Assembly: GCA_024233545.1 (NCBI GenBank) | Contig: JACKPL010000009.1 | Span: 6,578-70,577, forward strand | Length of the DNA stretch: 64,000 bases | Direction of reading: 5' to 3' | Source: a bacterium | GTDB taxonomy: Bacteria > Auribacterota > Auribacteria > Auribacterales > Auribacteraceae | Shown here: positions 23,681 through 53,011 of the stretch, in pieces | Layout of the letters: every line of letters starts with the position of its first letter | Numbering within the stretch: position 1 is the stretch's first letter | Notes under the pieces: generated by a model | What the model was told of the DNA's origin: nothing | Seen by the model: the letters and a program-made list of their open reading frames with translations, nothing else | The model's database searches: none | Position numbers and translations under genes: made by a program

Positions 23681-23770
23681 GGAGAGATGCCAGAGCGGTT
23701 GAATGGGGCGGTCTCGAAAACCGTTGGCCACGCAAGTGGCCCCAGGGTTCGAATCCCTGTCTCTCCGCCA
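23681..23770 (+). tRNA. tRNA-Ser (anticodon CGA)
   Basis: Acceptor ggagaga/tctctcc, anticodon arm gcggt-CTCGAAA-accgt, long variable arm, T-arm caggg-ttcgaat-ccctg, and an encoded CCA. Confidence 0.9.
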
Positions 23771-27323: not shown

Positions 27324-27662
27324 TTGTACTCTGAAATGGTACGTAACACAGGAATCATCAAGAGATATTTGCCTCTCATACTTTCGCTTATTGTTAACCC
27401 AAACTCTACCGACAGGGTGGAACATGAAATCACAAATAACGCGAATTGCGAAGACATAATACTTAATTTTGGGCAGAATATCGAAGCAGATGATGAACTA
27501 TTAAGAAAACATGAAAGAACGGGTAGGCCTCGGGGAAACAATGCTTTTCTCGCAAAATTAGAAAAGATTAGCAGTCGATCATTAAGAAAAAGAAAACCGG
27601 GACCCAAAAAGCATGCATCTCACGAGAATTATGTATTGTGTCCCTTTAATTTTTTACTTTAA
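27324..27662 (+). pseudogene. C-terminal fragment of a RayT/IS200-like Y1 transposase-family gene (low confidence)
   Basis: Only a tail is left: ...NPNSTDRVEH...LRKHERTGRPRGNNAFLAKLEKISSRSLRKRKPGPKK...NYVLCPF. No HUH or catalytic Tyr region is present. A REP-like hairpin follows immediately. Confidence 0.4.
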
Positions 27663-27693
27663 TTGTTGCCAAAACAATGTGAACATACAATGG

Positions 27694-27716
27694 ATTCCTG
27701 CTTTCGCAGGAATGAC
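27694..27716 (-). repeat. solo REP-like hairpin, same family as the units of the 42.1-kb array
   Basis: The plus strand reads attcctgc-tttc-gcaggaat-gac, which is the reverse complement of gtc-attcctgc-gaaa-gcaggaat. Confidence 0.85.
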
Positions 27717-27762
27717 ATATAAAATGGGTATAACTTTTTTTAAATAACGAGTGGGGTTAGAG

Positions 27763-28563
27763 ATGGAAACAAAAAACTTTTCTACTTGGGATGAATTTGA
27801 GGAATACGCACTTAAAAAAATGGACGAGGCAAATACCAAAACGTCAAAAGATTTTTATCGGCCTATATTTCGTGGTCAAGCTAATGCAGATTGGAGTCTC
27901 AAAACCACTTTAGATAGAGTGCGGGAAAGATACGATGCCTTTGATTATATTGAAATAATCTTTTCTATTAAAAATAAGCTTGAAACATTTACGCAACAAA
28001 AGTGGGATGGTTTAAACGATCCCAATAAAATCTTTGATGATTTTCATCCAGACGAGTATCTCGGTAATCCAGAATCATATCCATATATGCTCTACTTGCG
28101 CCATCATGGATTTCCTTCCCCGTTGCTTGACTGGAGTTTGTCGCCTTATATCGCGGCATATTTTGCATTTCGCGAGGGGACCAAGTGTAAGGAGGTAGCT
28201 ATTTATACTCTTTGTCGTATGCCAGCAGAGACGGATGTACCGAGTAGATATCGCATACACGTCACAGAACATAACGTAACAACTACACCGCGTCATGTTC
28301 TCCAACAGGCAATATATACATATTGCTTCGATCACGGAGCTCCACACGAAGCTCCAATGGGTGTTTTCTATGATGACCATGAAAAAGATACAACAAACAC
28401 GTATGAAATCAAAAAATGTATACTGCCATATTCAGAAAGAGAGAAGGTTTTAACAAAATTAGACCGAATGAATATAAACGCGTTTTCTCTGTTCAATTCT
28501 GAAGAAGGATTATGTGAAATGCTGTCGATTGACAGTTTTGTATTGCAAAAATTCACCATCTAA
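27763..28563 (+). CDS. FRG-domain protein
   Basis: YRPIFRGQANADWSLKTTLDR is the eponymous FRG motif context. The start was chosen at METKNF (ATG 27763). Confidence 0.75.
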   Translation: METKNFSTWDEFEEYALKKMDEANTKTSKDFYRPIFRGQANADWSLKTTLDRVRERYDAFDYIEIIFSIKNKLETFTQQKWDGLNDPNKIFDDFHPDEYLGNPESYPYMLYLRHHGFPSPLLDWSLSPYIAAYFAFREGTKCKEVAIYTLCRMPAETDVPSRYRIHVTEHNVTTTPRHVLQQAIYTYCFDHGAPHEAPMGVFYDDHEKDTTNTYEIKKCILPYSEREKVLTKLDRMNINAFSLFNSEEGLCEMLSIDSFVLQKFTI

Positions 28564-28596
28564 AACATCCACAAGAACACACACCACTTCCTTGTT

Positions 28597-28616
28597 ATTC
28601 CTGCGAAAGCAGGAAT
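28597..28616 (+). repeat. solo REP-like hairpin
   Basis: attcctgc-gaaa-gcaggaat, 33 nt after the FRG gene stop. Confidence 0.85.
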
Positions 28617-28819
28617 GACTACAGAAAGGGCAGGAGTGATTATCGAAATGCAGTATTATCACCGCGGGACACAATATGTAATTTCAGCCACCTTTTAACA
28701 CCTTATTCCCAAATACCATTTAGGAATTCATGCTCTTTAATTTTTTCATTTTATTTGGGACAAAGAGAAATAAACAATTGTCTCTTTTCTGTAAACAGAT
28801 TGTATGAGCGGGTTTTACC

Positions 28820-36858: not shown

Positions 36859-37110
36859 TTATTTGATTACAAAAAGCATCAACAGCGCAATAACGAGCGA
36901 ATAAATACCGGTTGACTCTGATACCGCTTGCCCGATAAGCATGGTACGGGTAATCAAGTTGGCATTTTCCGGTTCGCGAGCGACGCCCTCACACGCCTTG
37001 CCGGCGGCAAACCCTTCGCCGATGCCGGGGCCGATTGCACCGAACCCCATACAAATCCCAGCGCCGATCATTGCGGCGGCTTTAATTATTTCCGCGCCTG
37101 TCAGTTCCAT
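36859..37110 (-). CDS. atpE: Fo c subunit (single hairpin) with Na+-type two-carboxylate motif
   Basis: 83 aa. It contains [11 protein letters not shown] (E32) and [19 protein letters not shown] (E65, S66, T67, Y70), counted from Met1. Confidence 0.92.
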
Positions 37111-37140
37111 GATATGAACTCCTTCTTGCGTGTTAAAAAG

Positions 37141-37623
37141 TTACACAACATATATTAACATTAAAGCAATAACCAATGCATAAATACTGGTAGACTGCGA
37201 TACTGCCTGCCCAATGAGCATGGTGCGCAACAGTACTGTTTCCGAATCCGGATTACGCCCCACTCCCTCGCATGCCTCTGCGTTAGCAAACCCCGCACCG
37301 ACACCGGGCCCGAATGCCCCGGCTCCCATGCAGATTCCTGCACCAATCAGTGCACATAACGGCGCCAATCCGATAACAGCCGGCGCATTAAATAAAAGTA
37401 TAAACGCAACCAGCAATGCGAAAATCGATGGCGATTCGGTAACCGCTTGCCCAATAAGCATGGTTTTGATTACCTGCCCTTCCGCTTCCGGCTGACGCGC
37501 AATGGCGTTACACCCGCGCGAGCTGGCATACCCCACACCGTACGCCGGTCCGATCGCGCCGACACCCATACAGCATGCGGCGCCGACAAGAGAAGCGATT
37601 TTCATTGCGTATGCATCAATCAT
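37141..37623 (-). CDS. atpE: fused double-hairpin Fo c subunit (four TM helices, one carboxylate lost)
   Basis: 160 aa, made of two c-subunit repeats. Hairpin 1 has ...LIGQAVTESPSIF (E63). Hairpin 2 has ...LIGQAVSQSTSIY (Q143, codon cag, the reverse complement of ctg at 37195-37197). Confidence 0.88.
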   Translation of the reverse strand: MIDAYAMKIASLVGAACCMGVGAIGPAYGVGYASSRGCNAIARQPEAEGQVIKTMLIGQAVTESPSIFALLVAFILLFNAPAVIGLAPLCALIGAGICMGAGAFGPGVGAGFANAEACEGVGRNPDSETVLLRTMLIGQAVSQSTSIYALVIALMLIYVV

Positions 37624-37677: not shown

Positions 37678-38541
37678 TTATTCATTCACCATCACCGATA
37701 CATAGACAAGCGCCAGCATGGTAAACACAAATGCTTGAACCGCGCCGACAAACAAACCAAAAAAACCGTTAAGGAATACGGGCAGTACTATAAACCGTAT
37801 CAAATTACAAATAACGACCATAATAATCGCTCCGCCTAATATATTGCCGAAAAGACGAAACGAGTGGGATATGGTTTTCCCGATTTCTCCGACGATATTG
37901 AGCAGTCCCATAAACATATTAAATATAAATTTACCGATATTGCCGCCATTGAACCCTTTATCATACGGCATCGTAACGAAATATTCCGCAACATACCCTT
38001 TAAATCCCCGCACATAAATACCGCTGATGTGCGCTACGAAAAAACACATAATGCCGAATCCAAGTGTTGTATTGAGGTCGCGGGTTGGTTCTTCTATGGC
38101 TAGCCAATGGGGAAACACGCCATCTACGACATGCCAGAAACTCGGAATAACTCCTACCCAGTTAGACAACAACACAAAAATAAACAGCGTTGCGACAAAC
38201 GGCAGAAATTTTCTTCCACGTTTTTTGCCAAGCACTTCCGTACACAGCGTATCGAAAGCGGAAACATATGTTTCCGCTATTGCCTGCAGTCTGCCGGGTA
38301 TGGGCGTAAGGCGCCTCGTAAAAAAATAACTTCCTGCAATAACTACTGCCATAATCAGCCATGTATTAAGAACTGTAGAGATATTGATGCCGTTAAAAGG
38401 GATTTTTACGCCGAAAACCGTATGGATTTTTGCAAAAGGAGCCGCTATTTGAGACATATCATATTCGCCGAAAAGAGAAATGATAAACTCAACTGTAAAA
38501 ATAATTCCGATAACCAGAAAGACTTTTTTCTTGTTACTCAT
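37678..38541 (-). CDS. atpB: Fo ATP synthase a subunit
   Basis: The conserved stator Arg lies in SHSFRLFGNILGG. The start was chosen at MSNKKKVFLV (ATG 38541), overlapping the atpI stop by 8 nt. Confidence 0.9.
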   Translation of the reverse strand: MSNKKKVFLVIGIIFTVEFIISLFGEYDMSQIAAPFAKIHTVFGVKIPFNGINISTVLNTWLIMAVVIAGSYFFTRRLTPIPGRLQAIAETYVSAFDTLCTEVLGKKRGRKFLPFVATLFIFVLLSNWVGVIPSFWHVVDGVFPHWLAIEEPTRDLNTTLGFGIMCFFVAHISGIYVRGFKGYVAEYFVTMPYDKGFNGGNIGKFIFNMFMGLLNIVGEIGKTISHSFRLFGNILGGAIIMVVICNLIRFIVLPVFLNGFFGLFVGAVQAFVFTMLALVYVSVMVNE

Positions 38542-38902
38542 GCTGTTTAAATCCCCAGATAAAGTCGATGTAAATCGCAATTTGAACCAAGAAAATGCCA
38601 ATGGCGAAAGAGACAATGTTCACCGTATCATATCGGACGGCAACACAAAACGCCAAAGATAAAATTACAAACCGGAAAAAAAAACCTATTAAGATATTCT
38701 TCGAAGATTTTCGTTTGTTTACGGTTTCTGAAATCCGTTTGCCGATCAAAAAAAAGTTCAGCAATCCAACGCCAGTACCCAACAGCAACCCGTACACCCA
38801 ATCGCCCGCACCGGCGGCAATTGCTACGACACAGGCGGAACACGACAGCTGAACAACTCTTTTTAAAATCTGTTTCCAGACAGCCCGAACAGCTTGATGC
38901 AT
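38534..38902 (-). CDS. atpI: ATP synthase protein I
   Basis: A 122-aa hydrophobic protein directly upstream of atpB. Confidence 0.7.
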   Translation of the reverse strand: MHQAVRAVWKQILKRVVQLSCSACVVAIAAGAGDWVYGLLLGTGVGLLNFFLIGKRISETVNKRKSSKNILIGFFFRFVILSLAFCVAVRYDTVNIVSFAIGIFLVQIAIYIDFIWGFKQHE

Positions 38903-38920
38903 TCGTCAACTCTTGTACAA

Positions 38921-39199
38921 TCAGATATTTAACTCTTTTTTTAGGATTCTGTAACATTGGTAGAAGCCGGCACAAATGCCCGCGATTATGAAGACTATAA
39001 GAAAAATATAGTCTTTTCGGAAAATTTTATCAAGCCAAATTCCAATAAAAAAACCTGTTATTATTGAAAAGAACATTACCAGCCCGATATTTGAAATCAC
39101 TACAAAAACCCGGAATATTTCTCTGCGCTGTCCGGTTTGAGGGATTTCCTTCTCCGGTTCGGGCTTGCGAGACGGTTGGTTATTGGAAATGTTTGGCAA
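38921..39199 (-). CDS. AtpZ/AtpR-type small membrane protein
   Basis: 92 aa with two TM helices (VVISNIGLVMFFSIITGFFIGIWLDK...IFLIVFIIAGICAGFYQCY). It is the first gene of the atp cluster. Confidence 0.65.
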   Translation of the reverse strand: MPNISNNQPSRKPEPEKEIPQTGQRREIFRVFVVISNIGLVMFFSIITGFFIGIWLDKIFRKDYIFLIVFIIAGICAGFYQCYRILKKELNI

Positions 39200-40049
39200 T
39201 GTGTTCGAGTTCCTTTCTTGAATTAAAATGGATAATCAGCCTGCCGGATGTATCGTTCCATTTTATTTCAACCCGAGACTTGAGTTTACTGCGCAGTGTG
39301 CTGGTCACTTCGCCGAACGCCTGTTTGAGGCCCGGGTCGGTCAACGACCGCACAACAGTTTTTTTATCGGGCGATTTGAGTGCCTGAACAAGTTTTTCCG
39401 CATTGCGCACATTAAAACTGTTGCGGACAATCTGGCGGAATACATCCAGCTGTGCATCCTGATCCTCAAGCCCGAGCACCACTTTGGCATGCCCAACCGT
39501 GAACGAACCGTCCTGCAATGCATGCTGAATCTTTGGAGGAAGCTTAAGCAACCGAAGCGCATTCGTAATCGCTGTGCGGCTTTTTCCTACCTGCCGAGCG
39601 ATATCCTCATGGGATAAACTGAACTCTTCCGACAACATAAGGTAACCGCGCGCTTCTTCGATAGGGTTCAGGTCGGCGCGCTGAATATTTTCTATAAGCG
39701 CAAGCTCAAGGGCTTTGAGGTCGTTGACATTTTTCACTATTGCCGGTATTTCGTTCAATCCGGCGCGCTGAGCGGCAATAAACCGCCGTTCGCCGGCTAT
39801 CAGTTCGTATCCTGCCTGCATTTTACGCACGATGATCGGCTGAATGACGCCGTTTTCCTTGATGGACAGTTCTAAATCCTTGAGTTTCTCTTCGATGAAT
39901 TCGGAGCGAGGCTGGTAACGGTTTGCTTTAATATCGCTTAATTTTATACGGTGTACCAGTTCACGGTCAAGCGGCGATACGGGAATTAAGGATTGCAGTC
40001 CTCTTCCCAGCGGCGATTTCTTTTGTTTCGGGTCGGTTCCGGATTCCAT
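39180..40049 (-). CDS. parB: chromosome partitioning protein ParB/Spo0J
   Basis: LGRGLQSLIP, IQPIIVRK...YELIAGERRFIAAQRAGL, and an HTH in SHEDIARQVGKSRTAITNALRLLKL. Confidence 0.93.
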   Translation of the reverse strand: MESGTDPKQKKSPLGRGLQSLIPVSPLDRELVHRIKLSDIKANRYQPRSEFIEEKLKDLELSIKENGVIQPIIVRKMQAGYELIAGERRFIAAQRAGLNEIPAIVKNVNDLKALELALIENIQRADLNPIEEARGYLMLSEEFSLSHEDIARQVGKSRTAITNALRLLKLPPKIQHALQDGSFTVGHAKVVLGLEDQDAQLDVFRQIVRNSFNVRNAEKLVQALKSPDKKTVVRSLTDPGLKQAFGEVTSTLRSKLKSRVEIKWNDTSGRLIIHFNSRKELEHIAKHFQ

Positions 40050-40070
40050 GGTATGTTAAAAAATCCTTTC

Positions 40071-40859
40071 TTATACAGCGGAGAGCAGTTCCGCATTGCG
40101 TTTCAAAAATTCTCGGGCGAGGTCGCGGTATGCTTTCGAACCCACACTCGCCGGATCGTAGTAGAGAGCCGGTTTTCCGTAGCTCGGCGCTTCCGACAAC
40201 TTCACGTTGCGCGGGATGATTGTCGAATACACATATTCCCGTTTACTGAAGAAACTGTTGACTTCGTTGAGCACATGAACGGCAAGTCGCGTGCGCTTAT
40301 CGAACATGGTAAGCACGATCCCTTCTATGTGCAGGTCAGGGTTGAGCCCAAGCTGAATAAGATTGATTGAATTGAGCAGTAAACTGAGCCCTTCAAGCGC
40401 GTAGTACTCGGTTTGAATCGGTATGAGCACGCTGTCGGCGGCGCTAAGCGCGTTCACCGTAAGGAGCGTCAAAGAGGGAGCACAATCCAGAATGATAAAA
40501 TCGTATTCGTCCCGAACGACTTTGAGCGCTTCTTTGAGGCGTGATTCCCTGCTTTGTTTTTCGTACAGCCCTACATCCGCGCCGCTTAAATCGCGGTTTG
40601 ACGGAATAATATGAAAGTTGGTGTAGCCGGTGTCGAGTATGATTTCGGTAAGCGGAAACTCATCGACCAACGCATCATAGAGCCCGACGGTAAGCTGGTG
40701 GGTGTTTATGCCGAGCCCGCTGGTAGCGTTTCCTTGCGGATCAGCATCGATCAGCAGAATTTTCCAGCCGTGTTCCGCCAATCCCGCGCACAGATTGATG
40801 GCAGTGGTCGTTTTGCCTACGCCGCCCTTCTGATTGGTTATACTGATTACTTTGCCCAT
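40071..40859 (-). CDS. parA: chromosome partitioning ATPase ParA/Soj
   Basis: A deviant Walker A, KVISITNQKGGVGKTTTAINL, followed by ILLIDADPQGNAT. Confidence 0.95.
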   Translation of the reverse strand: MGKVISITNQKGGVGKTTTAINLCAGLAEHGWKILLIDADPQGNATSGLGINTHQLTVGLYDALVDEFPLTEIILDTGYTNFHIIPSNRDLSGADVGLYEKQSRESRLKEALKVVRDEYDFIILDCAPSLTLLTVNALSAADSVLIPIQTEYYALEGLSLLLNSINLIQLGLNPDLHIEGIVLTMFDKRTRLAVHVLNEVNSFFSKREYVYSTIIPRNVKLSEAPSYGKPALYYDPASVGSKAYRDLAREFLKRNAELLSAV

Positions 40860-41046
40860 CTGACCTCTCGCGCATTATGAATCTACCCGAATGATACCAA
40901 GCTTTTCTGTCCGTGGCAATTATTTTTGTCGGGAAAAATTTTTTCGGGCGGCGCGTGAACGGATGCGAACAAACAAAGGTTTTTGTGAGAAACAGAATAA
41001 AAAAACGTTCCGATAGAGACAAAAACACTCAACTGCAACAACCTGC

Positions 41047-41075
41047 TTGACGAAAAACAGAAAAATTGATACAGT
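41047..41075 (+). promoter_or_regulatory. candidate sigma70-type promoter for the tRNA-Ser pair
   Basis: TTGACG (41047-41052), 17 nt, then TACAGT (41070-41075), ending 17 nt upstream of the tRNA 5' end. Confidence 0.4.
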
Positions 41076-41092
41076 TCAAAGATATTTCGTCC

Positions 41093-41177
41093 GGAGAGGT
41101 GGCTGAGCGGTTGAAAGCACCGGTCTTGAAAACCGGCGAACCGAAAGGTTCCGTGGGTTCGAATCCCACCCTCTCCG
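41093..41177 (+). tRNA. tRNA-Ser (anticodon TGA)
   Basis: Acceptor ggagagg/cctctcc, anticodon arm ccggt-CTTGAAA-accgg, long variable arm, and T-arm gtggg-ttcgaat-cccac. CCA is not encoded. Confidence 0.9.
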
Positions 41178-41287
41178 TTGAATTCAGCGGAGCAGGGCGG
41201 CGGACGAATCGATGCTTACGTTACTACATACTGCATGCGGGATGCCGGTTAGGTACGGCACCGCGTTGCATATCATACGATCTAAAC

Positions 41288-41377
41288 GGAGAGGTGGCTG
41301 AGAGGCTGAAGGCAACGGATTGCTAATCCGTCGTAGGGGCTCAACCCCTACCGAGGGTTCGAATCCCTCCCTCTCCG
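41288..41377 (+). tRNA. tRNA-Ser (anticodon GCT)
   Basis: Acceptor ggagagg/cctctcc, anticodon arm acgga-TTGCTAA-tccgt, long variable arm (gtaggggctcaaccccta), and T-arm gaggg-ttcgaat-ccctc. Confidence 0.9.
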
Positions 41378-41451
41378 TTTTACTTTTTTCATCGTTTGTT
41401 TGATAAAACACATAGGCTAATCCAAATCAATCGTTACAAAAAGGTTTCCAA

Positions 41452-41958
41452 ATGAAAAAAATAGTCTTCTTTTTATGTTTGGCGATGATAACCGGTTTCA
41501 GCTCCGCAGACGAACCTGCAAAAAACAGACTGCACTTCAAAAACAATAATTTCTCCATAGCACCGCTCGACGAAAAATCAACCGTTCAATCGTATCAATT
41601 GCTTGTGATGTTTCTGCCGGCATCGGATGCGTTTGCTCCCAATGTCAATGTAATACTGCAACAGTATAGCGATACCATGGAGAGTTACGCGGCGTTATCG
41701 CGCCAAGAATTCCAAGACGAGCAATGGACAATTTTGAAAGAGGAAACCGTAGGGAACTCGATTCATTGGGAAACCAGCGGAATGTTTCAAGGCCAAAAAC
41801 TCCATTGGTACATGCGAGCAGATTTTAATAACGGTACGGTATACCTGATTACTGCTACCGCCACGGAAAATCAATGGAAAACAGTCGGCACAAAACTCAC
41901 CGAATGCGTTGACAGTTTCCAGTTAGATGACATTATGCACGATGCTGATAATGAATAA
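41452..41958 (+). CDS. secreted hypothetical protein
   Basis: Signal peptide MKKIVFFLCLAMITGFSSA behind an AAAGG RBS. The ORF is 168 aa and no family was recognised. Confidence 0.65.
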   Translation: MKKIVFFLCLAMITGFSSADEPAKNRLHFKNNNFSIAPLDEKSTVQSYQLLVMFLPASDAFAPNVNVILQQYSDTMESYAALSRQEFQDEQWTILKEETVGNSIHWETSGMFQGQKLHWYMRADFNNGTVYLITATATENQWKTVGTKLTECVDSFQLDDIMHDADNE

Positions 41959-42030
41959 GCAAGGAATTGTCATTATTGTATGCACATAGCCATACCGGTT
42001 CGAGTTATACAAATAACTCTGCCTTCGGTT

Positions 42031-42059
42031 ATTGCGAGGAGCGATAGCGGCGTCGCAAT
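42031..42059. repeat. solo hairpin of a second REP-like family
   Basis: attgcga-ggagcgatagcggcg-tcgcaat, immediately upstream of the tandem array. Confidence 0.5.
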
Positions 42060-42100
42060 CTCCCTATGTTGATTCAGGCATTCAAACGCAACACCGTCAT

Positions 42101-43511
42101 GTCATTCCTACGAAAGCGAGAATCTATTTTGTATTGTTAAATTCATATGCAATACCACTGTACGTGTCATTCCGGCGAAACACACCGAGAGGATAAATAC
42201 CTTGACCGCGGACGTTCAAACCACAACACAACACTATGTCATTCCTGCAAAAGCAGGAATCTATTTTGTATTGTTAAATTCATGTGCAATACCACTGTAC
42301 GTGTCATTCCGGCGAAACATACCATGAGGATAAATACCTCGACTGCGGACGTTCAAACCACAACACAGCACTATGTCATTCCTGCAAAAGCAGGAATCTA
42401 TTTTGTATTGTTAAATTCATGTGCAATACCACTGTACGTGTCATTCCGGCGAAACACACCGAGAGGATAAATACCTCGACTGCGGACGTTCAAACCACAA
42501 CACAACACTATGTCATTCCTGCGGAAGCAGGAATCTATTTTGTATTATTAAATTCATATATGCAATACCACTGCACGTGTCATTCCGGCGAAACATACCA
42601 TGAGGATAAATACCTCGACTGCGGACGTTCAAACCACAACACAGCACTATATCATTCCTGCGAAAGCGAGGAATCTATTTTGTATTATTAAATTCATGCG
42701 CAATACCACTGCACGTGTCATTCCGGCAGAAAACACACCGAGGATAAATACCTCGACTGCGGACGTTCAAACCACAACACAACACTATGTCATTCCTGCG
42801 GAAGCAGGAATCTATTTTGTATTGTTAAATTCATATGCAATACCACTGCACGTGTCATTCCGGCGAAACATACCATGAGGATAAATACCTCGACTGCGGA
42901 CGTTCAAACCACAACACAGCACTATGTCATTCCTGCGAAAGCAGGAATCTATTTTTTATTGTTAAATTCATGTGCAATATCACTGCACGTGTCATTCCGG
43001 CGAAATACCATGAGGATAAATACCTCGACTGCGGACGTTCAAACCACAACACAGCACTATGTCGTTCCTGCGAAAGCAGGAATCCTATTTTGTATTGTTA
43101 AATTCATGTGCAATATCACTGCCGTCTTCTATGTCATTCCGGCGAAACACACCAAGAGGATAAATACCTCGACTGCGGACGTTCAAACCACAACACAACA
43201 CTATGTCATTCCTGCAAAAGCAGGAATCTATTTTGTATTGTTAAATTCATGCGCAATACCACTGCACGTGTCATTCCGGCGAAACACACCGAGAGGATAA
43301 ATACCTCGACTGCGGACGTTCAAACCACAACACAACACTATGTCATTCCTGCGGAAGCAGGAATCTATTTTGTATTGTTAAATTCATATGCAATACCACT
43401 GCACGTGTCATTCCGGCGAAACATACCATGAGGATAAATACCTCGACTGCGGACGTTCAAACCACAACACAGCACTATGTCATTCCTGCGAAAGCAGGAA
43501 TCTATTTTGTA
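42101..43511. repeat. tandem array of about 10.3 units of 137 bp, each containing a REP-like hairpin
   Basis: Unit starts were read at 42101, 42238, 42375, 42512, 42651, 42789, 42926, 43061, 43205, 43342 and 43479. Every unit has gtcattcctgc-(g/a)(a/g)aa-gcaggaatctattttgtattgttaaattcat... Confidence 0.95.
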
Positions 43512-43532
43512 TCCACGGTGTTTCGAGTATGG

Positions 43533-43555
43533 ATTCCTGCTTTCGCAGGAATGAC
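43533..43555 (-). repeat. inverted solo REP-like hairpin capping the array
   Basis: The plus strand reads attcctgc-tttc-gcaggaat-gac, 21 nt after the last partial unit. Confidence 0.85.
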
Positions 43556-43739
43556 ATAGAGGGCGGTTACAGGGTTTCATCTTTACACATCAAATCCATA
43601 TAGTGTAACATATATTTTATCGAGATTATTTGTTGAAAAATTTAAGATACCGATTGCATCTGAGGTTCACGAATCATTAAGAGTCTTACCTTGTGAACTA
43701 TGCCCATTTTGATACTTTTTTAAATATGGAGGTGTCGTC

Positions 43740-44690
43740 ATGATAGTAGAATGCGAAAAATGTTCTTCTAAATTACTTTTCGGAAAATATGATAAAGCAA
43801 TCTCTTGGTGTCCTAATTGTGAAGGTTTGGAAGTAATCCCGAACACGCAAGCCGTACAAATGATTAGGAATGACATAATAAAACTAAATGAAGAAATTAA
43901 TAAATTAATTATAACGTATGACAAGGAAAGCCTCTTAATATCATTGTATGTGACCCGAGAAGGAATGTTGCATGATAATTCTTTAGACTTGGGACTTTTT
44001 ATGACTATTACCGAATTGATACAAACGGTAATAAAAATGACCAATAATGGCAGTCAGAAGTGTATTCCAATGTCGGATGAATTTCAGAATATCTTGCAAT
44101 ATGCTGAAGAATTTAGAGAATCAAAAATTATCATGCGATTATTAAATCAAGGTTGGGGAAAACTTATCAAAATTAAGAAAAATATGATGAGTGAATATTG
44201 TTATAAATTTGATGATGTTATTAAGTTACGAGGACAAAATGCTGTTGTTTTTGATAATAATGATTGGACTAATCAATGGAAGTTTACTTACGAATGGCAT
44301 CAAGTTTTGAATAACTTAGAAGAAAATGGATTATATGCAAGAACTACAAAAATTGATAATTCGATTGACTTTAAAAAGATTAACGAATTTTGGAACTCTA
44401 TTAGAGTTAAAATAGGTTTAGAATTGGCTGTTGGCGATAATAAAATTCTCGAAATAGATACGTTAAAAAAAATACAAGGAAAAGATATTATTAGTTATCT
44501 TAGGAAATTAGATGAATTGATTGAAAAATTTCCGTTTGAAATTACCTTTTCTGAAAAGATGGCTATAAAAATTTACTGCAAACAGCCAGTAGATGTAGTT
44601 ACTTTTCTCTTACCATTGGTAAAAACCAGTTATGTCTCGATAATTTCAAAAATTCTTTTTTTTCATCAATATTTGATTTTAGATGTTTAA
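43740..44690 (+). CDS. hypothetical protein with N-terminal Zn-ribbon (CxxC...CxxC)
   Basis: A strong GGAGGTG RBS precedes the start. The N-terminus reads MIVECEKCSSKLLFGKYDKAISWCPNCEG. The DNA is very AT-rich, and the ORF may be the intact front part of a longer decayed gene. Confidence 0.6.
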   Translation: MIVECEKCSSKLLFGKYDKAISWCPNCEGLEVIPNTQAVQMIRNDIIKLNEEINKLIITYDKESLLISLYVTREGMLHDNSLDLGLFMTITELIQTVIKMTNNGSQKCIPMSDEFQNILQYAEEFRESKIIMRLLNQGWGKLIKIKKNMMSEYCYKFDDVIKLRGQNAVVFDNNDWTNQWKFTYEWHQVLNNLEENGLYARTTKIDNSIDFKKINEFWNSIRVKIGLELAVGDNKILEIDTLKKIQGKDIISYLRKLDELIEKFPFEITFSEKMAIKIYCKQPVDVVTFLLPLVKTSYVSIISKILFFHQYLILDV

Positions 44691-44800
44691 AGGAGGAATT
44701 TTGTTAACTAACAAGGGATTGATTGTCGGAAAACGAACTTTAAGATAATTTCCTCAAACTTAAAAGCAAAATACTATCAAGATTATTTAAATATAAAACC

Positions 44801-45230
44801 ATGATGTGGGATATGAGTTTGAAGAATTGGTTTGCAATAGAACTTAAAAGTTGGGATCAACATTTCTGTACCCAATGATTCCACAAAAAAAATTAATAAA
44901 TATGATGATGATAAAAACATCCAACATTAGAAATTGATATTCTAGGTTATATAGGCGACACTTTATTTGTAATCGACTGTAAAAGCTATTGTTATCTCAA
45001 CAAATTTATAAAGTCATTCACGAGAAAGTACTGTAAGAAAAGATTTAAAAGATGAGCATAGGAAGCAAAGTAAAAGAATTAAGAGTATATACAAAATAAT
45101 ATGCAAAAATTTGGTTTTTTAACTCACAACAGTATCAAAATATTAAGAATATTATTGTCACATATAATAAAGAACCGATTAATCAAATCAATGATATTAA
45201 AATAGTGCGTACGAGGAGTTAAAATCATTA
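44801..45230 (+). pseudogene. wrecked PD-(D/E)xK (Mrr/NERD-like) nuclease gene
   Basis: Fragments across frames read GYEFEELV... and EIDILGYIGDTLFVIDCKS (a D...D/E-x-K pattern at 44930-44988). They are interrupted by many stops and frameshifts. Confidence 0.45.
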
Positions 45231-45852
45231 ATTTCTTTTGACTCATAAAAATAAATACAAGGAAAAATAAATGAATTAAACTATTAGGGGCAGAACATAT
45301 AGAAGAACTAAAGGACGAAATCAAAAATAAGTAGCCAAAATTTATCTGAAGTTTTAGACAAGCTTAAAAAAGCATTGATGATTTAATGCATCGACCAACA
45401 AATTTGCTAATACTCAGAAAAAACTTCAAATTTGGCTATGTATATTTACTTTTGCGCTTGTTATTGTTGGTGCTCTTCAAGTGTTCTTTCGTTAAATCTA
45501 AATTTAAAAGATTTATATTGCAATAAGCCTGACTACTCCGTGTTAACCTTATTTGTGGTGTAAAGCCCAAAGGAAATGCTTTTTTATCTGCCCCCGCCCG
45601 GAAATGGGCAGTAAAAAAGTTTTTCCGACCCCATGAGCCGAGAAGACAAACGAGTTTGTCGCCATTCTGAAAATTCTATCGGTATCCATGACTGTTTGCC
45701 GGCAAAAACGGATCGCATACCGGAAGAAACCTTTCCAGAAAAACATTGACTTTCACCCTCAACCTGCATAATCCTAATGAATATAACAGGATTCATCTGA
45801 ACAACGAATGGAGTCAACTCCATTTCCAAAACCACAGAACAGGAAACAAACC

Positions 45853-47454
45853 ATGGCTAAACATGAAATCATACCGGTTAAAGTACGACGCTGGAAAGAA
45901 TCGGACATTCCCGCAATTGTGGAATGCCAACGGGCTTGTTATCCGGATTTTGCGTTGGCAGACCTTTGCGACGAACGGAATTACCTGCTCCAGCTGAACA
46001 TGTTCCCCGAAGGACAGTTTCTCGCGGAAATTCAAGGGCGCGTAGTAGGTTACACTACAACCCTCATTGTCACACTGGAAGAAGACACCTATTATAGTTA
46101 CGCGGAAATTACCGGAACCGGAACGTTTTCCACACATAATCCGTTTGGCGATACGCTCTATGGAGCGGACATCGCCGTCCTGCCCGAATTGCGCGGAAAA
46201 GGGATAGCCGGAAAACTCTATGCCGCGCGCAAGAAACTGCTTCACCGTCTTAACCTGAGAAGAATGGTGGCTGGCGGACGCATTCCGGGTTACTCGCAGT
46301 ATGCAGGCAGGCTGACTGCCGAAGAATATGTCCGCAGTGTCATTCATTCGGAACTGACCGACCCGACTCTGACGCCTCAAATCCGGTCGGGATATCAGGT
46401 TAAGGGCGTCTATATGGATTACCTTTCCGATGAAAAAAGCCTGAATTACGCCACGTTTCTTGAATACATAAACCCGCATTTCGATGCGCTTCGCCATAAA
46501 ATATCCGCGTCTCCGATCAAAGGGACGGTCAGGAAAATACGGGTCTGTGCAGTTCAATACCAGATGCGTACTTTGAAATCTAAAGATGACTTTGCACGGC
46601 AAGTCGAGTTCTTCGTCAACAGCGCCGACCTGTACGGATGCCACTTTCTGGTGTTTCCCGAACTGTTTACCGCTCAAATGTTCAGTTTGATGGACCCTGA
46701 CATTTCGGGCACGGAAGCAATCAACGCATTATGCGGTTTTTCCTCCGAGTATATTGAAATATTTCGGTATCATGCTCAGAAAACCGGTATGTTCATTATT
46801 GGCGGTTCGCATCCCGTGCGCGATCCTGACAATAAGGTGCGCAACAGGGCGCATCTGTTTACGCCTCAAGGCGATGTTTTCACGCAAGACAAACTGCACG
46901 TCACTCCGGTTGAAGCAGAACATTGGGGAATAACGCCCGGCGATGGACTGCGCATCTTCGACACGGGATTGGCACGCATTGCCATACAGGTGTGCTACGA
47001 TATCGAGTTTCCCGAAGTGTCGCGGCTCCTGACTATGGCGGGGGTCGAGGTCATTTTCGTTCCATTCAGCACCGATGACCGCAAAGCGTACTGCAGGGTA
47101 AGGCATTGCGCTCAAGCACGGTCGGTGGAAAATTATATTTACACGGTGCTCTCCGGCAATATCGGCAACTTGCCGCAGGTCAGAAGTTTTCTGCTGAATT
47201 ACGGGCAAGCGGCAATCTTGACGCCGTGCGATTATCCGTTCCCTAAAGACGGCGTACTGGCTGAAGCATCTCCATCGGACGAGACAGTGGTTATATCCGA
47301 ACTGGATTTAGGGGATTTATCCAAACAGCGGGAAATAGGCAGTGTCCGCCCACTGCGCGACCGGCGGGTAGACATCTATGCGCTCAATTCAAGAATGCCC
47401 ATAGAAACCGTAAAAACCTATGAAAAATTTCCCCTGCAGTCTCGGCACAGATAA
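45853..47454 (+). CDS. bifunctional GNAT acetyltransferase / carbon-nitrogen hydrolase (nitrilase superfamily) fusion
   Basis: The N-terminal GNAT domain contains LPELRGKGIAGKLY. The C-terminal CN-hydrolase domain contains FLVFPELF (Glu) and ARIAIQVCYDIEFPE (Cys). The start is at MAKHEII (ATG 45853) behind an AGGAAA RBS. Confidence 0.85.
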   Translation: MAKHEIIPVKVRRWKESDIPAIVECQRACYPDFALADLCDERNYLLQLNMFPEGQFLAEIQGRVVGYTTTLIVTLEEDTYYSYAEITGTGTFSTHNPFGDTLYGADIAVLPELRGKGIAGKLYAARKKLLHRLNLRRMVAGGRIPGYSQYAGRLTAEEYVRSVIHSELTDPTLTPQIRSGYQVKGVYMDYLSDEKSLNYATFLEYINPHFDALRHKISASPIKGTVRKIRVCAVQYQMRTLKSKDDFARQVEFFVNSADLYGCHFLVFPELFTAQMFSLMDPDISGTEAINALCGFSSEYIEIFRYHAQKTGMFIIGGSHPVRDPDNKVRNRAHLFTPQGDVFTQDKLHVTPVEAEHWGITPGDGLRIFDTGLARIAIQVCYDIEFPEVSRLLTMAGVEVIFVPFSTDDRKAYCRVRHCAQARSVENYIYTVLSGNIGNLPQVRSFLLNYGQAAILTPCDYPFPKDGVLAEASPSDETVVISELDLGDLSKQREIGSVRPLRDRRVDIYALNSRMPIETVKTYEKFPLQSRHR

Positions 47455-47623
47455 CGGATATTAAATATGGGATGTGTCCCTTTATTTTTTTGTGATTTGC
47501 ATTTTGGGATAGGTGTCGATAAATTTTGGAACAGCATAGAAAACGATTGCGGTTTTCATCTTTACACGCTAACCCCTTATACGATATTATTTTCTGTATA
47601 GATAATGCAAAAAGGAAAAAACA

Positions 47624-49054
47624 GTGGCTTCCATCCATAAAACTCATGTGCCGCTTATTATTTTTACCGTCTGTATAATGATCTATGCATTCGGCGGTTT
47701 CTTGCCCGATGCTTATTCGCAAGTTGCCCTGCCGGAGAATGACACAACACGGAACACGGGATTAACCGTGCAACCGCTTGACAACGATTCATCTATCAGG
47801 CAAACGACGGTACTATCAGAAAAGGCACCGCCTCAAAAAGAGTCCGGCACAACCGAATCCGCGGAAAATCAGGAACAATTGCTCTCTGAACTTTCCGCCC
47901 GCCTCCTTAATAAACTTGATAAAGATGTCCTCACTATTGCATATAAAGGGCTGGAACAATCCCAGAAAAATATTGACAGGTCTATCAGTATTTTAAATTA
48001 CGCTACAGGCACACTGGCAGTGACTGCGACGCTTTTAGGGGTGATTGTTGCGCTTTTTGCAGTGTTTATTACAGTCGCCAGTTTATTTTCATACTTTAAA
48101 TATAAAGATACTAGGGAACTTGAAAAACAAATAGAACAGAATGCCAAACAAACAGAACAGAATGTCATAGAAGCTAATAATAAGCTAAAGGAAGCTGAAA
48201 AACTAGTAGGTGAAATAGCAAAGCTTAAAACGCGCGCGGAAGATACTGTAAATTCATTGACAAAACTACCAGTAGAAAAACTTTTACCGGAAGAATCGAA
48301 ACAGATGGCGAAAGAGCTTGAAGACGCTGTAGAACGTTCCGCAATTATGGGAATTGAACAAAGCCCGGCACAGAAGGCATTCATTGAAGCAACAAAGCTC
48401 TATTATCAAGGAAACTATCAGGACTCTCTAAAAGAATTCGAAAAGGTGATTAAGCTTAAACCTGATTTCCCTGATCCATGGCACAGCAAAGGAGTTGTGC
48501 TGGGTAAGCTCGGCAGATGTGAGGATGCGCTTAAAGAGTTCGATAAGGTACTGGAACTCAAACCTTACCTTTATGAGGCGTGGTATAACAAAGGAGTTAC
48601 GCTGGATAGGCTCGGCAGATATGCTGATGCGCTCAATGCGTTCGATAAAGCGATTAGGCTCAAAACTGATTTCTATGAAGCATGGTACAACAAAGGAAAT
48701 GCCTTGGATAAGCTTGGCAGTTATGCGAATGCGCTCAATGCGTTCGATAAAGCGATCGGGCTTAAACCGGATTCCCCTGAGGCGTGGCACAACAAAGGAT
48801 ATGTGTTGAATAAGCTCGGCAAGCCTGATGATGCACTCGAGGCATTCGATAAAGCGATCGAACTTAAACCGGACGATCATGAGGCGTGGTTCAACAAAGC
48901 CTGCTCTTTTGCTTTGAAGAATGATAAGAAGAACATGTTGTCGTGTTTGGCAAAAGCGATTGAGCTCGATCCGATATGTAAACAACATGCACAAGCTGGG
49001 TCTGCCTTCGAAACTTTCCGGGACGATCCCGACTTTAAAAAATTAGTTGAGTGA
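47624..49054 (+). CDS. membrane-anchored coiled-coil plus TPR-repeat protein
   Basis: A GTG start follows an AAGGAAAA RBS. The protein has a signal or anchor, a second TM, and a coiled coil. Six near-identical TPR units follow (AWYNKG..L..LGRY.DAL.AFDKAI.LKPD). Confidence 0.8.
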   Translation: MASIHKTHVPLIIFTVCIMIYAFGGFLPDAYSQVALPENDTTRNTGLTVQPLDNDSSIRQTTVLSEKAPPQKESGTTESAENQEQLLSELSARLLNKLDKDVLTIAYKGLEQSQKNIDRSISILNYATGTLAVTATLLGVIVALFAVFITVASLFSYFKYKDTRELEKQIEQNAKQTEQNVIEANNKLKEAEKLVGEIAKLKTRAEDTVNSLTKLPVEKLLPEESKQMAKELEDAVERSAIMGIEQSPAQKAFIEATKLYYQGNYQDSLKEFEKVIKLKPDFPDPWHSKGVVLGKLGRCEDALKEFDKVLELKPYLYEAWYNKGVTLDRLGRYADALNAFDKAIRLKTDFYEAWYNKGNALDKLGSYANALNAFDKAIGLKPDSPEAWHNKGYVLNKLGKPDDALEAFDKAIELKPDDHEAWFNKACSFALKNDKKNMLSCLAKAIELDPICKQHAQAGSAFETFRDDPDFKKLVE

Positions 49055-52919: not shown

Positions 52920-53011
52920 GGAGAGATGTCCGAGCTGGCCTAAGGAGCACGACTGGAAATCGTGTAAACGTCAAAAGCGTTTCGAGGGTTCGAATCCCTC
53001 TCTCTCCGCCA
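52920..53011 (+). tRNA. tRNA-Ser (anticodon GGA)
   Basis: Acceptor ggagaga/tctctcc, anticodon arm cacga-CTGGAAA-tcgtg, long variable arm, T-arm gaggg-ttcgaat-ccctc, and an encoded CCA. Confidence 0.9.

Follow-up and report, generated by a model that had tools for sequence, protein, structure and literature searches.

What kind of repeat is a 1.4-kb stretch in which one unit of 137 bp follows itself head to tail about ten times, each time starting with the same short hairpin, how did it come into being, and does it serve its host? The stretch lies in the genome of an uncultured relative of Candidatus Auribacterota, within a window (the whole piece of DNA analysed here) of 64,000 nucleotides. 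An earlier reading of the letters, here called the preliminary description, had considered an amplified cluster of REP-like palindromes, an array of small structured RNAs, and a recombination or insertion hotspot.

Architecture of the array and its surroundings

The proposed tandem array of about 10.3 units of 137 bp was borne out by Tandem Repeats Finder (TRF; period 137, 10.3 copies, 92% matches, score 2370; Table 1), with a copy number that is the one assembled in a metagenome-assembled genome (MAG). Cutting the array at the hairpin starts gave units of 137, 137, 137, 139, 138, 137, 135, 144, 137 and 137 nt, exactly the ten lengths listed in the preliminary description, whereas the final partial unit, previously put at 33 nt, measured 36 nt. 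The order of two unit haplotypes, A-B-A-B-A-B-B-A-A-B, was likewise reproduced. Besides belonging to type A or B, the units can be told apart by their loops, which come in three variants, by private indels and, in unit 8, by a unique 9-nt tag. Recent duplications show in unit pairs that are almost alike: 6 and 10 do not differ at all, 3 and 9 differ at two sites, and 4 and 10 at three. The hairpins, 24 nt long, are spaced 113 nt apart, and the segments between them are themselves 92% identical and lack unique spacers, in agreement with the earlier statement that this is not a CRISPR. Each unit also contains, once, the half motif TGTCATTCCgGCGAAA, as had been described; the two halves of a unit have only these 16 nt in common, the remainder being similar at chance level. 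TRF also listed a row of period 65, as if the 137-bp unit had arisen by the doubling of some 65 bp; apart from the 16-nt half motif, this idea was rejected.

Table 1. Positions of the array, the hairpins and neighbouring features within the window
Feature	Position	Strand	Remarks
tRNA-Ser pair (tga, gct)	41092..41378	+	
PsbP-like gene (MCP5463040.1)	41452..41958	+	168 aa; signal-peptide-like N-terminus; directly 5' of array
Second hairpin type, GTTATTGCGAGG...GTCGCAATCTCC	42028..42063	+	same orientation; just 5' of array
Tandem array	42099..43512	+	10 full units of 135-144 nt (consensus 137), then 36-nt partial unit
Unit starts	42099, 42236, 42373, 42510, 42649, 42787, 42924, 43059, 43203, 43340, 43477		
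11 forward NTS-like hairpins, GTCATTCCTGC-N4-GCAGGAATC	42238..43502	+	24 nt; one at each unit start
Perfect forward hairpins, starts (8)	42238, 42375, 42512, 42789, 42926, 43205, 43342, 43479		
Damaged forward hairpins, starts (3)	42101, 42651, 43061		
10 half hairpins, GTCATTCCgGCGAAA	42166..43422	+	3' arm absent; mid-unit, one per unit
Half-copy starts	42166, 42303, 42440, 42579, 42717, 42854, 42991, 43133, 43270, 43407		
Convergent doublet	43475..43559		last forward copy, 29-nt spacer, inverted copy
Inverted NTS-like hairpin, GTCATTCCTGCGAAAGCAGGAATC	43532..43555	-	array cap
AT-rich variable segment	43713..45563		27-39% GC; right of array
Solo NTS-like hairpin	27693..27716	-	left of FRG-domain gene
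FRG-domain gene	27751..28563	+	between two hairpin sites
Chimeric single hairpin	28594..28619		right of FRG-domain gene

Stop codons interrupt every reading frame of the array (6-10 per frame on the + strand, 22-28 on the - strand), and its ORFs match no Pfam family above threshold, so that the description of the array as non-coding stands. The array is a real, non-coding tandem repeat of 1.4 kb. The unit interior occurs nowhere else within the 64-kb window, a two-unit query had no match in phage or plasmid collections, and scans of metagenome contigs for the unit interior CTGCGGACGTTCAAACCACAACAC (JGI) and for the doublet spacer CCACGGTGTTTCGAGTATGGATTCC returned nothing.

With up to two mismatches allowed, the window has 12 matches to the palindrome ATTCCTGC-N4-GCAGGAAT, where 0.03 would be expected; ten of them lie in the array and the remainder at 43533-43552, 27694 and 28597. 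The loops GAAA, AAAA and GGAA, all named in the preliminary description, do occur among the hairpins, and the inverted hairpin said to cap the array is present on the - strand. All 11 hairpins of the array stand on the + strand, the inversion being confined to the terminal pair, and GTC immediately precedes the palindrome in 10 of the 11 forward copies as well as in the inverted copy. As a single strand, this terminal doublet could alternatively form a single long hairpin (-33 kcal/mol, z = -11). Two solo hairpins had been noted further to the left. That at 27694 is indeed one, whereas that at 28597 is a collapsed doublet, namely a doublet minus the 51 nt between its two GCAGGAAT arms. Motifs resembling the second hairpin type just 5' of the array were also seen in the flanks of loci L095 and L097.

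The array begins 140 nt past the stop codon of the PsbP-like gene and is followed by the AT-rich segment, in whose place a 91%-identical relative has other genes. Different genes occupy the array position in a relative from another genus that shares the parAB-atp synteny, and the contigs of two relatives from outside the genus, L121 and L127 with about 20 kb apiece, lack such hairpins and do not conserve the locus. The last 19 nt of the second tRNA-Ser gene reappear in L122, a possibly circular contig of 4.26 kb; a repeat of the tRNA-Ser 3' end (attR) was looked for beyond the AT-rich segment and not found.

A stem variant of the dRS3/NTS hairpin

Judged by its sequence, the window hairpin GTC-ATTCCTGC-GAAA-GCAGGAAT-C represents a variant, in the stem, of the dRS3/NTS hairpin of Neisseria, and is an Ssn-related motif (SRM). 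The small GIY-YIG nuclease SsnA binds the NTS in single-stranded DNA and cleaves it (Chenal et al. 2025, Nat Commun 16:2388, PMC11893778). The published NTS is CGTCATTCCCGCGMAVGCGGGAATCYRG; its 5' GTC matters for cleavage, and the C right after the palindrome is the most important base for binding (PMC11893778). In Neisseria and Wolbachia, the small single-domain nuclease Ssn binds a single-stranded hairpin of this family in one orientation and cuts a few bases upstream of it (PMC11893778). The window copy, TGTCATTCCTGCGAAAGCAGGAATCTAT, retains both the 5' GTC and the C after the palindrome, and its sole stem change relative to the NTS is compensatory, from C:G to T:A at the third stem pair. 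Counted against the NTS consensus it has four mismatches, two of which make up this one pair; the NTS search in the paper allowed one mismatch (PMC11893778). Likewise, the window hairpin does not match the dRS3 pattern ATTCCC-N8-GGGAAT, and the published degenerate SRM pattern has no match in the window, though it does match the canonical NTS.

More than 120 loci carry the exact hairpin variant, which sits there beside canonical NTS copies; they come from Bacteroidota, Nitrospirota, Chloroflexota, Planctomycetota, Rickettsiales, Omnitrophota and other groups. The same loci hold 70 further copies of the form GTCATTCC...GGAAT, 49 of which have a 3-bp inner stem formed by nine types of complementary triplets (the canonical CGC/GCG accounting for 21), compared to 9.8 on average and at most 18 paired inner triplets in shuffles. 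The inner-stem pairs covary while the outer stem and the flanks stay fixed, a pattern that, at the level of sequence, marks these hairpins as one family. The C after the palindrome is present in 67 of the 70 further copies. Since 141 of 145 loops begin with G, the hairpin element has an orientation, and for 39 of 116 copies a convergent inverted partner follows within 150 nt downstream, mostly 13-44 nt away.

In the published systems, the motif goes with a small single-domain GIY-YIG gene (cd10448) in the same genome, which it often flanks. Genes resembling the nuclease adjoin some of the hairpins found here. Single-domain GIY-YIG ORFs (PF01541), 91-94 aa in length, begin 10 nt past the hairpin in L083 and 52 nt past it in L092. 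In a third locus (L040), a hairpin array of 4.7 x 301 bp directly adjoins a GIY-YIG-like ORF that is partial because the locus ends within it; this ORF was matched in a GIY-YIG profile search and had no Pfam hit. Within the 64-kb window, no GIY-YIG or Ssn gene was found. By analogy with the published systems, the array hairpins of this organism may be cleaved by an Ssn. The ends of the array do not fall where Ssn would be expected to cut, its right end lying 10 nt 3' of the hairpin, so that no observation links Ssn with the way the array arose.

The dRS3/NTS hairpin was long seen as a peculiarity of Neisseria, and its tie to the Ssn nuclease dates from 2025. The stem variant escapes the published search patterns and builds NIME-like arrays in the Auribacterota-related bacterium studied here, in Bacteroidota and in Omnitrophota. 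Searches for Ssn-related motifs should permit covarying stems.

Strain variation and the origin of the array

Strain contigs were retrieved via cluster members of the window's proteins, including the PsbP-like protein. At the array site, two 91%-identical relatives (L122 and L123) possess the doublet only and 0 units, a 99%-identical strain (L124) about 0.7 unit, a contig from an independent sample (L125) at least 1 unit and the window 10.3, all of these being counts from short-read assemblies in which repeats may have collapsed. L125 has the same left array junction and stops 59 nt into unit 1, and the right junction is reproduced in L124, again an independent sample. The range of 0, about 0.7 and at least 1 units in related strains marks the array as a recent, unstable and strain-specific expansion. 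The second hairpin site is polymorphic as well: the doublet that lost 51 nt in the window is complete in strain contig L126. Both hairpin loci of the window thus differ among related strains. The placement of the array in a variable region holds, and the earlier term recombination hotspot is a fair functional analogy. Among 99%-identical strains, a doublet became ten units at one locus and a single hairpin at the other, and such differences document, in natural populations, the instability that was proposed for repeats of this kind.

As far as the compared sequences tell, the array appears to have grown from the left arm of the hairpin doublet. We consider it likely that it is a strain-specific, non-coding minisatellite, in which a 137-bp segment with an oriented hairpin of the dRS3/NTS type was amplified in tandem. 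The ancestral state would have been a convergent, REPIN-like doublet downstream of the PsbP-like gene, in a variable region near the two tRNA-Ser genes. The left arm of this doublet, together with its upstream flank, would then have been duplicated repeatedly, and later exchanges may have shuffled the units into the irregular A/B pattern. Slipped-strand mispairing or unequal exchange between sister copies could have driven this growth, probably aided by hairpin formation in single-stranded DNA. If the genome encodes an Ssn, the array would amount to a battery of about ten cutting sites on the same strand, and any single-stranded copy of the + strand would fall into fragments of about 137 nt. 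Recombination across the border from the tRNA-Ser/PsbP-like side to the AT-rich segment might be impeded by such cutting. Given the large variation among near-identical strains, the array has, in our view, no indispensable function; most likely it is tolerated as a by-product of a hairpin repeat that is unstable.

The hairpin followed by a T-tract might also act, as a side effect, as an intrinsic terminator on the + strand, as the match to this pattern suggests. It is a different and unlikely matter whether the array is mainly a stack of such terminators insulating the PsbP-like gene from the AT-rich segment. Nine + strand units do look like terminators, with an 8-bp stem containing four G-C pairs and followed by CTATTTTGTA, the 11 terminator-like sites exceed the 3.4 +/- 2.0 found in shuffles, and the array starts soon after the stop of a + strand gene. 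Yet one or two terminators would suffice, the stem is just half G-C, and L122 and L123 (L124 with about 0.7 unit in addition) make do with a single forward hairpin plus the inverted copy. Moreover, CAG or CAT, and no T-run, comes after this hairpin in the majority of other genomes, so that the T-tract is a local feature and not one of the family. Terminator activity would be compatible with the minisatellite explanation as a by-effect of the hairpins.

A more far-reaching and improbable version regards the doublet as a mobile, REPIN-like element with the GIY-YIG nuclease Ssn, in place of a RayT transposase, as its partner, and the same-orientation arrays either as direct products of Ssn or as selected 'fences'. 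In the former case, Ssn acting on single-stranded DNA would make the arrays, for example by cutting and rejoining or by a rolling-circle-like copying of units; in the latter, arrays of cutting sites would stop incoming single-stranded DNA from recombining across island boundaries. If either were true, Ssn and its hairpins would constitute a second, independent system that spreads palindromic repeats and shapes genomes in many phyla.

That the array or its copy number is an artefact of MAG assembly seems quite improbable to us. The window was drawn from a MAG, tandem repeats with a period of 137 bp are difficult for short-read assembly, and other assemblies break at the array (L125) or carry fewer units (L124). 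Nevertheless, the units are individually distinct, which simple expansion or collapse would not yield, and the left and right junctions recur in L125 and L124, respectively, from independent samples. The junction in L124 has just 5 nt in common with the window flank; it is thus no k = 141 shortcut and represents a different haplotype. Arrays of NTS-like hairpins should in general be expected to break or distort short-read assemblies.

REP, REPIN and BIME-2 clusters with RayT transposases have reportedly been described from enterobacteria and pseudomonads by Bachellier and co-workers, by Nunvar and co-workers in 2010 and by Bertels and Rainey in 2011. REPs typically have a GTAG head and a Y1/HUH transposase, RayT, as their partner, and a BIME-2 is a polymorphic tandem cluster in which REPs of alternating orientation are joined by short linkers. 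The anatomy of the window's repeats is broadly REP-like (imperfect palindrome, oriented flank, REPIN-like doublets, a polymorphic cluster resembling BIME-2), and a short ORF at 27324-27662 stops 30 nt before the solo hairpin; the preliminary description had taken it for the tail of a RayT-like transposase. That could not be substantiated: the 112-aa ORF has no Pfam hit, its three homologues are short and lack a Y1 domain, and none was found in the 120 hairpin loci. Tblastn searches for an intact Y1/RayT gene, with an approximate RayT-like consensus and IS200 TnpA as queries and hence of limited sensitivity, yielded nothing credible, either in the window or among the 120 loci. At its conserved 5' end the hairpin reads GTC-A instead of GTAG, and the protein that adjoins the hairpins is a GIY-YIG, matching the published Ssn partner (PMC11893778). 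It is therefore very unlikely that a RayT (Y1/HUH) transposase built and maintains the array as an amplified REP/BIME cluster, the leading idea of the preliminary description. A BIME-like amplified cluster remains a fair functional analogy, whereas the link to REP and RayT is not supported, these searches having found no Y1 gene.

The suggestion that the array encodes small structured RNAs, or else a repeat protein, could draw on the hairpin in each unit and on + strand open stretches of up to 109-202 aa, but hardly stands up. Stops occur in every frame and no Pfam family is matched, as given above. Better folding than in shuffled sequences was confined to the 8-bp hairpin (z = -4.7) and the terminal doublet; the unit as a whole showed none (z = -0.86 on the + and -0.83 on the - strand). 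An Rfam search, which had been proposed for the array, was run and gave no match for it at the gathering score, the tRNAs alone passing in the window, and no promoter-like site recurring per unit was found. Close relatives, finally, live without the array. Matches of the terminal doublet to miRNA precursors, which passed an E-value threshold only, were spurious. Equally remote is a replication element (a cluster of DnaA boxes or iterons) at or near the chromosomal origin: the cumulative GC skew has its minimum at about 43-44 kb, gene orientation flips at 40.9-41.1 kb beside parA-parB and the atp operon, and B-type units carry TTATCCTCA (- strand), one mismatch from a DnaA box, but A-type units have two mismatches, the five DnaA-box-like sites of the array are copies of one, the window as a whole shows no enrichment of such sites (22, where 16.3 +/- 4 are expected), the other-genus relative with the parAB-atp synteny has different genes here, and an array that is missing or minimal in close relatives cannot be essential.

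Comparison with named repeat systems

The preliminary description had recognised no described family with this architecture. With the hairpin identified as a dRS3/NTS stem variant, the closest named architecture is the Neisseria NIME array. NIMEs are arrays of dRS3 hairpins with RS elements of 50-150 bp between them (Bentley et al. 2007, PMC1797815); their repeat number varies by strain in Neisseria, and in 2007 they were stated not to have been seen elsewhere (PMC1797815). Both kinds of array are intergenic, are made up of ATTCC...GGAAT hairpins of 20 bp with AT-richer stretches of about 110 bp between them, adjoin variable genes and differ in repeat number between strains. However, a NIME is a mosaic of many RS families, whereas here one 137-bp unit is repeated head to tail with 92% identity, and dRS3 is treated as an unoriented inverted repeat, whereas here all hairpins point the same way.

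Tandem arrays with the same GTCATTCCTGC...GCAGGAATC hairpin are also found in Flavobacteriaceae bacterium GF1 (locus L040, AP035880.1; 4.7 units of 301 bp, 95% identity) and in Candidatus Omnitrophus magneticus (locus L067; period 186). These differ from the window array in having longer units with a pair of hairpins, and fewer copies. The unit of the former seems, on reading its sequence, to contain a 3' fragment of the adjacent GIY-YIG-like gene.

With the NTS and other SRMs, the array hairpin shares the core (GTC, ATTCC-stem-loop-stem-GGAAT, C), the G-first tetraloop, the fixed orientation, the presence in many phyla and the small single-domain GIY-YIG genes directly adjoining, which in the case of the array variant were found in other genomes. 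It differs in the third stem pair, T:A instead of C:G in the NTS, and in the 3' flank, TAT instead of the YRG of NTS/SRM.

The REP/REPIN/BIME-2 group has in common with our case the short extragenic palindromes, the convergent doublets that can fold into a long hairpin, and the strain-variable clusters amplified in tandem. In BIME-2, though, REPs alternate and linkers are short, whereas here there is one orientation and a linker of 113 nt; and where REPs have their Y1/HUH partner, the window's hairpin family has GIY-YIG neighbours and no GTAG head. Taken together, the array adds a new example to a kind of repeat already known and does not represent a new kind of system.

Anatomy of the 137-bp array and readings set aside

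Tandem Repeats Finder recovered the tandem repeat proposed in the preliminary description as a single array, and splitting it at every hairpin start reproduced the unit lengths read off before (137, 137, 137, 139, 138, 137, 135, 144, 137 and 137 nt), except that the partial unit measures 36 nt rather than 33 nt. Shuffled sequence would give 0.03 copies of the hairpin core ATTCCTGC-N4-GCAGGAAT, and the window contains 12; loops GAAA, AAAA and GGAA are all found in the array hairpins, and the half copy of the motif, GTCATTCCgGCGAAA, lies mid-unit. Beyond this 16-nt half motif the two halves of a unit have nothing in common, the similarity of the remainder being at the level of shuffled sequence. 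Unit comparison bore out two linked haplotypes in the order A-B-A-B-A-B-B-A-A-B. Unit 10 matches unit 6 base for base and departs from unit 4 at 3 sites, and 2 sites separate units 3 and 9; therefore, the array was recently reshuffled in blocks.

The array was described as neither coding nor a CRISPR, and both statements hold: each frame contains 6–10 stops on the + strand and 22–28 on the - strand, array ORFs matched no Pfam family above threshold, and the inter-hairpin segments also repeat from unit to unit. An array of small structured RNAs, also considered at that stage, found no support, as whole units, folded as a single strand, scored z = -0.86 and -0.83, no better than shuffles. Folding beyond the shuffled level was confined to the 8-bp hairpin (z = -4.7) and to the terminal doublet (-33 kcal/mol, z = -11). 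Four tRNA-Ser genes were the only matches passing thresholds in an Rfam scan of the window; a permissive scan added only sub-threshold miRNA-precursor matches in the terminal inverted pair, artefacts that its long hairpin produces. No promoter-like site recurring once per unit was found in the array, and the unit had no match among plasmids, phages and JGI metagenome contigs.

Two further observations concern the array and its edge. The 9-nt tag in unit 8, seen also in the strain contig L124, may be left over from an earlier array boundary or from an exchange between strains. The second hairpin type upstream of the array may represent another Ssn-related motif class; motifs resembling it, GTCATTGCGAGG...GGCAATCTC, lie in the flanks of hairpin loci from other phyla (L095, L097).

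Features of the window and sequences compared with it
Feature	Position or accession	Description
Tandem array	42099-43512	Period 137, 10.3 copies, 92% matches, score 2370
Hairpin core copies inside array		n = 10
Inverted hairpin core copy	43533-43552	
Further hairpin core copies	27694 and 28597	
Terminal convergent doublet	43475-43559	Forward hairpin, 29-nt spacer, inverted hairpin
Tag in unit 8	43120-43135	cgtcttcta where other units have acg
Same tag in L124	L124:1030-1050	Junction of left flank and half-hairpin segment
Second hairpin type	42028-42063	GTTATTGCGAGG...GTCGCAATCTCC, just upstream of array, same orientation
ORF described as RayT-like tail	27324-27662	
FRG-domain gene	27751-28563	Bracketed by two hairpin sites (27693-28619)
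Chimeric hairpin site	28594-28619	51 nt missing between GCAGGAAT arms
Double ATP synthase c subunit	36859-37623	160 aa, two c-subunit repeats; beside ordinary 83-aa c subunit
tRNA-Ser genes	23681-23770, 41092-41378, 52920-53011	n = 4, anticodons cga, tga, gct, gga, within 30 kb
Gene strand switch	40.9-41.1 kb	- strand (atp operon, parB, parA) to + strand
Cumulative GC skew minimum	~43-44 kb	Within window 38000-48000
Homology to L122:1-4284	41360-42134, 43456-43712, 45564-45662	
Possible decayed island	41379-45662	
Array in Flavobacteriaceae bacterium GF1	L040:6469-8000	4.7 x 301 bp, 95% identity between units
Strain contig L125	ERZ28655881	99% to window; left junction and decayed first unit as in window; ends 59 nt into array
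Strain contig L124	ERZ27309377	99% to window; continuous across site, only about 0.7 unit
Strain contigs L122, L123	Two Logan runs	91% to window; doublet only, no array

The hairpin family and its GIY-YIG neighbours

In Neisseria, the NTS (Neisseria Transformation Sequence), defined as CGTCATTCCCGCGMAVGCGGGAATCYRG, contains the classical dRS3 repeat ATTCCC-N8-GGGAAT and is bound and cut by SsnA, a small single-domain GIY-YIG protein; its action is confined to single-stranded DNA and to one of the two strands, and the site lies upstream of the motif by a few bases (Chenal et al. 2025, PMC11893778). The GTC head matters for cleavage and the C after the palindrome matters most for binding; NTS-like Ssn-related motifs (SRM) are widespread, as are ssn genes, and the two are frequently adjacent (PMC11893778). 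The window hairpin TGTCATTCCTGCGAAAGCAGGAATCTAT retains both the GTC head and this C, and its one stem difference from the NTS is a compensatory change of a C:G to a T:A pair. Taken literally, the published patterns miss it: four mismatches separate it from the NTS, and the degenerate SRM pattern matched nowhere in the window.

Exact matches to the pattern GTCATTCCTGC-N4-GCAGGAATC, sought in one genome per species, came to at least 120 loci from Bacteroidota, Nitrospirota, Chloroflexota, Planctomycetota, Rickettsiales, Omnitrophota, Thermodesulfobacteriota and candidate phyla. Among the matches listed, G is the first loop base in 141 of 145 loops (GAAG, GAAA, GGAA, GCAA and others), giving the element an orientation, and its 3′ flank is mostly CAG, CAT or TAT. 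These loci (at least 120) hold 70 other GTCATTCC...GGAAT copies in the matches listed; a complementary triplet extends the stem in 49 of them (shuffled control: mean 9.8, maximum 18), with nine triplet types of which the canonical CGC/GCG accounts for 21 copies, and in 67 of the 70 the base after the palindrome is C. Because of this covariation, the failure of the literal patterns does not prevent placement: judged by sequence, the window hairpin is a member of the dRS3/NTS/SRM family in a broad, covarying sense. The preliminary description, which recognised no described family with this architecture, is superseded as to the hairpin by the covariation and the conserved GTC and C.

GIY-YIG ORFs adjoin several of these hairpins. 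One of 94 aa begins 10 nt past the hairpin in a member of the Pirellulales (L083), one of 91 aa begins 52 nt past it in the Ignavibacteria (L092), and locus L003 has such a gene at greater distance. In Flavobacteriaceae bacterium GF1 (L040), a partial ORF truncated by the locus end adjoins a hairpin array; it matches the GIY-YIG profile built for this analysis and has no Pfam match. A search of the 64-kb window found no GIY-YIG gene. Using tblastn with an approximate RayT-like consensus and IS200 TnpA queries, we found no credible Y1 transposase in the window or the listed loci, and the supposed RayT-like tail had no Pfam match and only three short homologues.

Among the 116 listed hairpins with sufficient flanking sequence, an inverted partner lies downstream of 39, mostly 13–44 nt off, and upstream of only 8; the window array ends in such a convergent doublet. 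Fourteen of the 116 have a same-orientation copy within 400 nt. As far as can be read from the sequence, the L040 unit apparently consists of a 3′ fragment of the adjoining GIY-YIG-like gene and a divergent hairpin pair; this locus is the clearest case of tandem amplification at an ssn-like locus. Candidatus Omnitrophus magneticus (L067) carries another tandem array of hairpin units with a period of 186. Therefore, tandem amplification around the hairpin recurs in distant phyla.

Strain variation and genomic setting

The PsbP-like protein encoded beside the array has the same sequence as MCP5463040.1 of an NCBI MAG, and the best matches of the ATP synthase beta subunit are 82–86% identical, the named ones being Candidatus Auribacterota and Candidatus Auribacter fodinae. 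Strain contigs were taken from other samples carrying the PsbP-like gene at an identity of at least 90%. The break of L125 inside the array is the usual behaviour of short-read assembly at repeats. L124 represents a different haplotype and not a k-mer shortcut, since its junction has just 5 nt in common with the window flank. A hairpin doublet in a variable region seeded the array, which expanded recently and in a strain-specific manner.

Even near-identical strains of this species differ by sequence gained or lost at hairpin sites. A copy is indeed present at 28597, but it is a chimera rather than the ordinary solo hairpin initially reported; the loss between doublet arms explains its odd combination of loop and flank orientation, and the sample that yielded L124 also gave L126, in which the doublet on the right of the FRG-domain gene is complete. 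The bracketing of this gene corresponds to the NTS-gene-NTS layout described in Neisseria. Loops of the doublet arms are GAAA/TTTC in the window and GGAA/TTCC in L124: both arms switched with complementarity kept, which, as a single event, is suggestive at most.

The end of L122 overlaps its own start by exactly 28 nt; this contig may represent either a circle of 4.26 kb or a tandem duplication. Besides the final 19 nt of tRNA-Ser(GCT), it contains the PsbP-like gene, the doublet of hairpins, ORFs of 453, 195 and 119 aa without Pfam match and a 70-aa HTH_17/AlpA-like ORF. Owing to this self-overlap and gene content, the corresponding stretch of the window may be a decayed integrative island at tRNA-Ser; a search for its attR repeat found none. 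The GC skew minimum and the strand switch suggest that the array may lie close to a replication origin. Every B-type unit contains TTATCCTCA, with one mismatch to a DnaA box, and DnaA-box-like sites show no enrichment in the window overall. The arrangement of double and ordinary c subunits is shared with a relative from another genus (L127).

Origin of the array and known counterparts

Growth and shrinkage would proceed by slipped-strand mispairing or unequal exchange between the 137-bp direct repeats, and hairpin extrusion on single-stranded DNA would favour either. The array ends 10 nt 3′ of a hairpin on the right and fades into similar flank sequence on the left; as these boundaries mismatch the expected Ssn cut site, nothing ties Ssn to array formation. 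If the genome encodes Ssn, homology predicts about ten cutting sites at 137-nt spacing on the + strand of the array. In Neisseria, such sites reduce integration of transforming DNA (Chenal et al. 2025, PMC11893778). By pattern match, nine hairpins downstream of the PsbP-like gene, each with CTATTTTGTA behind it, score as intrinsic terminators. That Ssn and doublets form a mobile repeat system generating arrays, or else that arrays are selected as fences of single-strand cuts, appears to us quite improbable. As close relatives lack it, we regard the array as a tolerated by-product and not as a required element.

BIME-2/REPIN clusters are transposase-associated and have an alternating arrangement. 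The window array is alike in behaviour but has neither this arrangement nor, by our search, their transposase. Its closest known counterpart is the NIME array, in which dRS3 hairpins flank 50–150-bp RS elements in strain-variable fashion, and which was unknown outside Neisseria as of 2007 (Bentley et al. 2007, PMC1797815). In contrast to NIME, the window array is a homogeneous head-to-tail repeat with all hairpins in one orientation.
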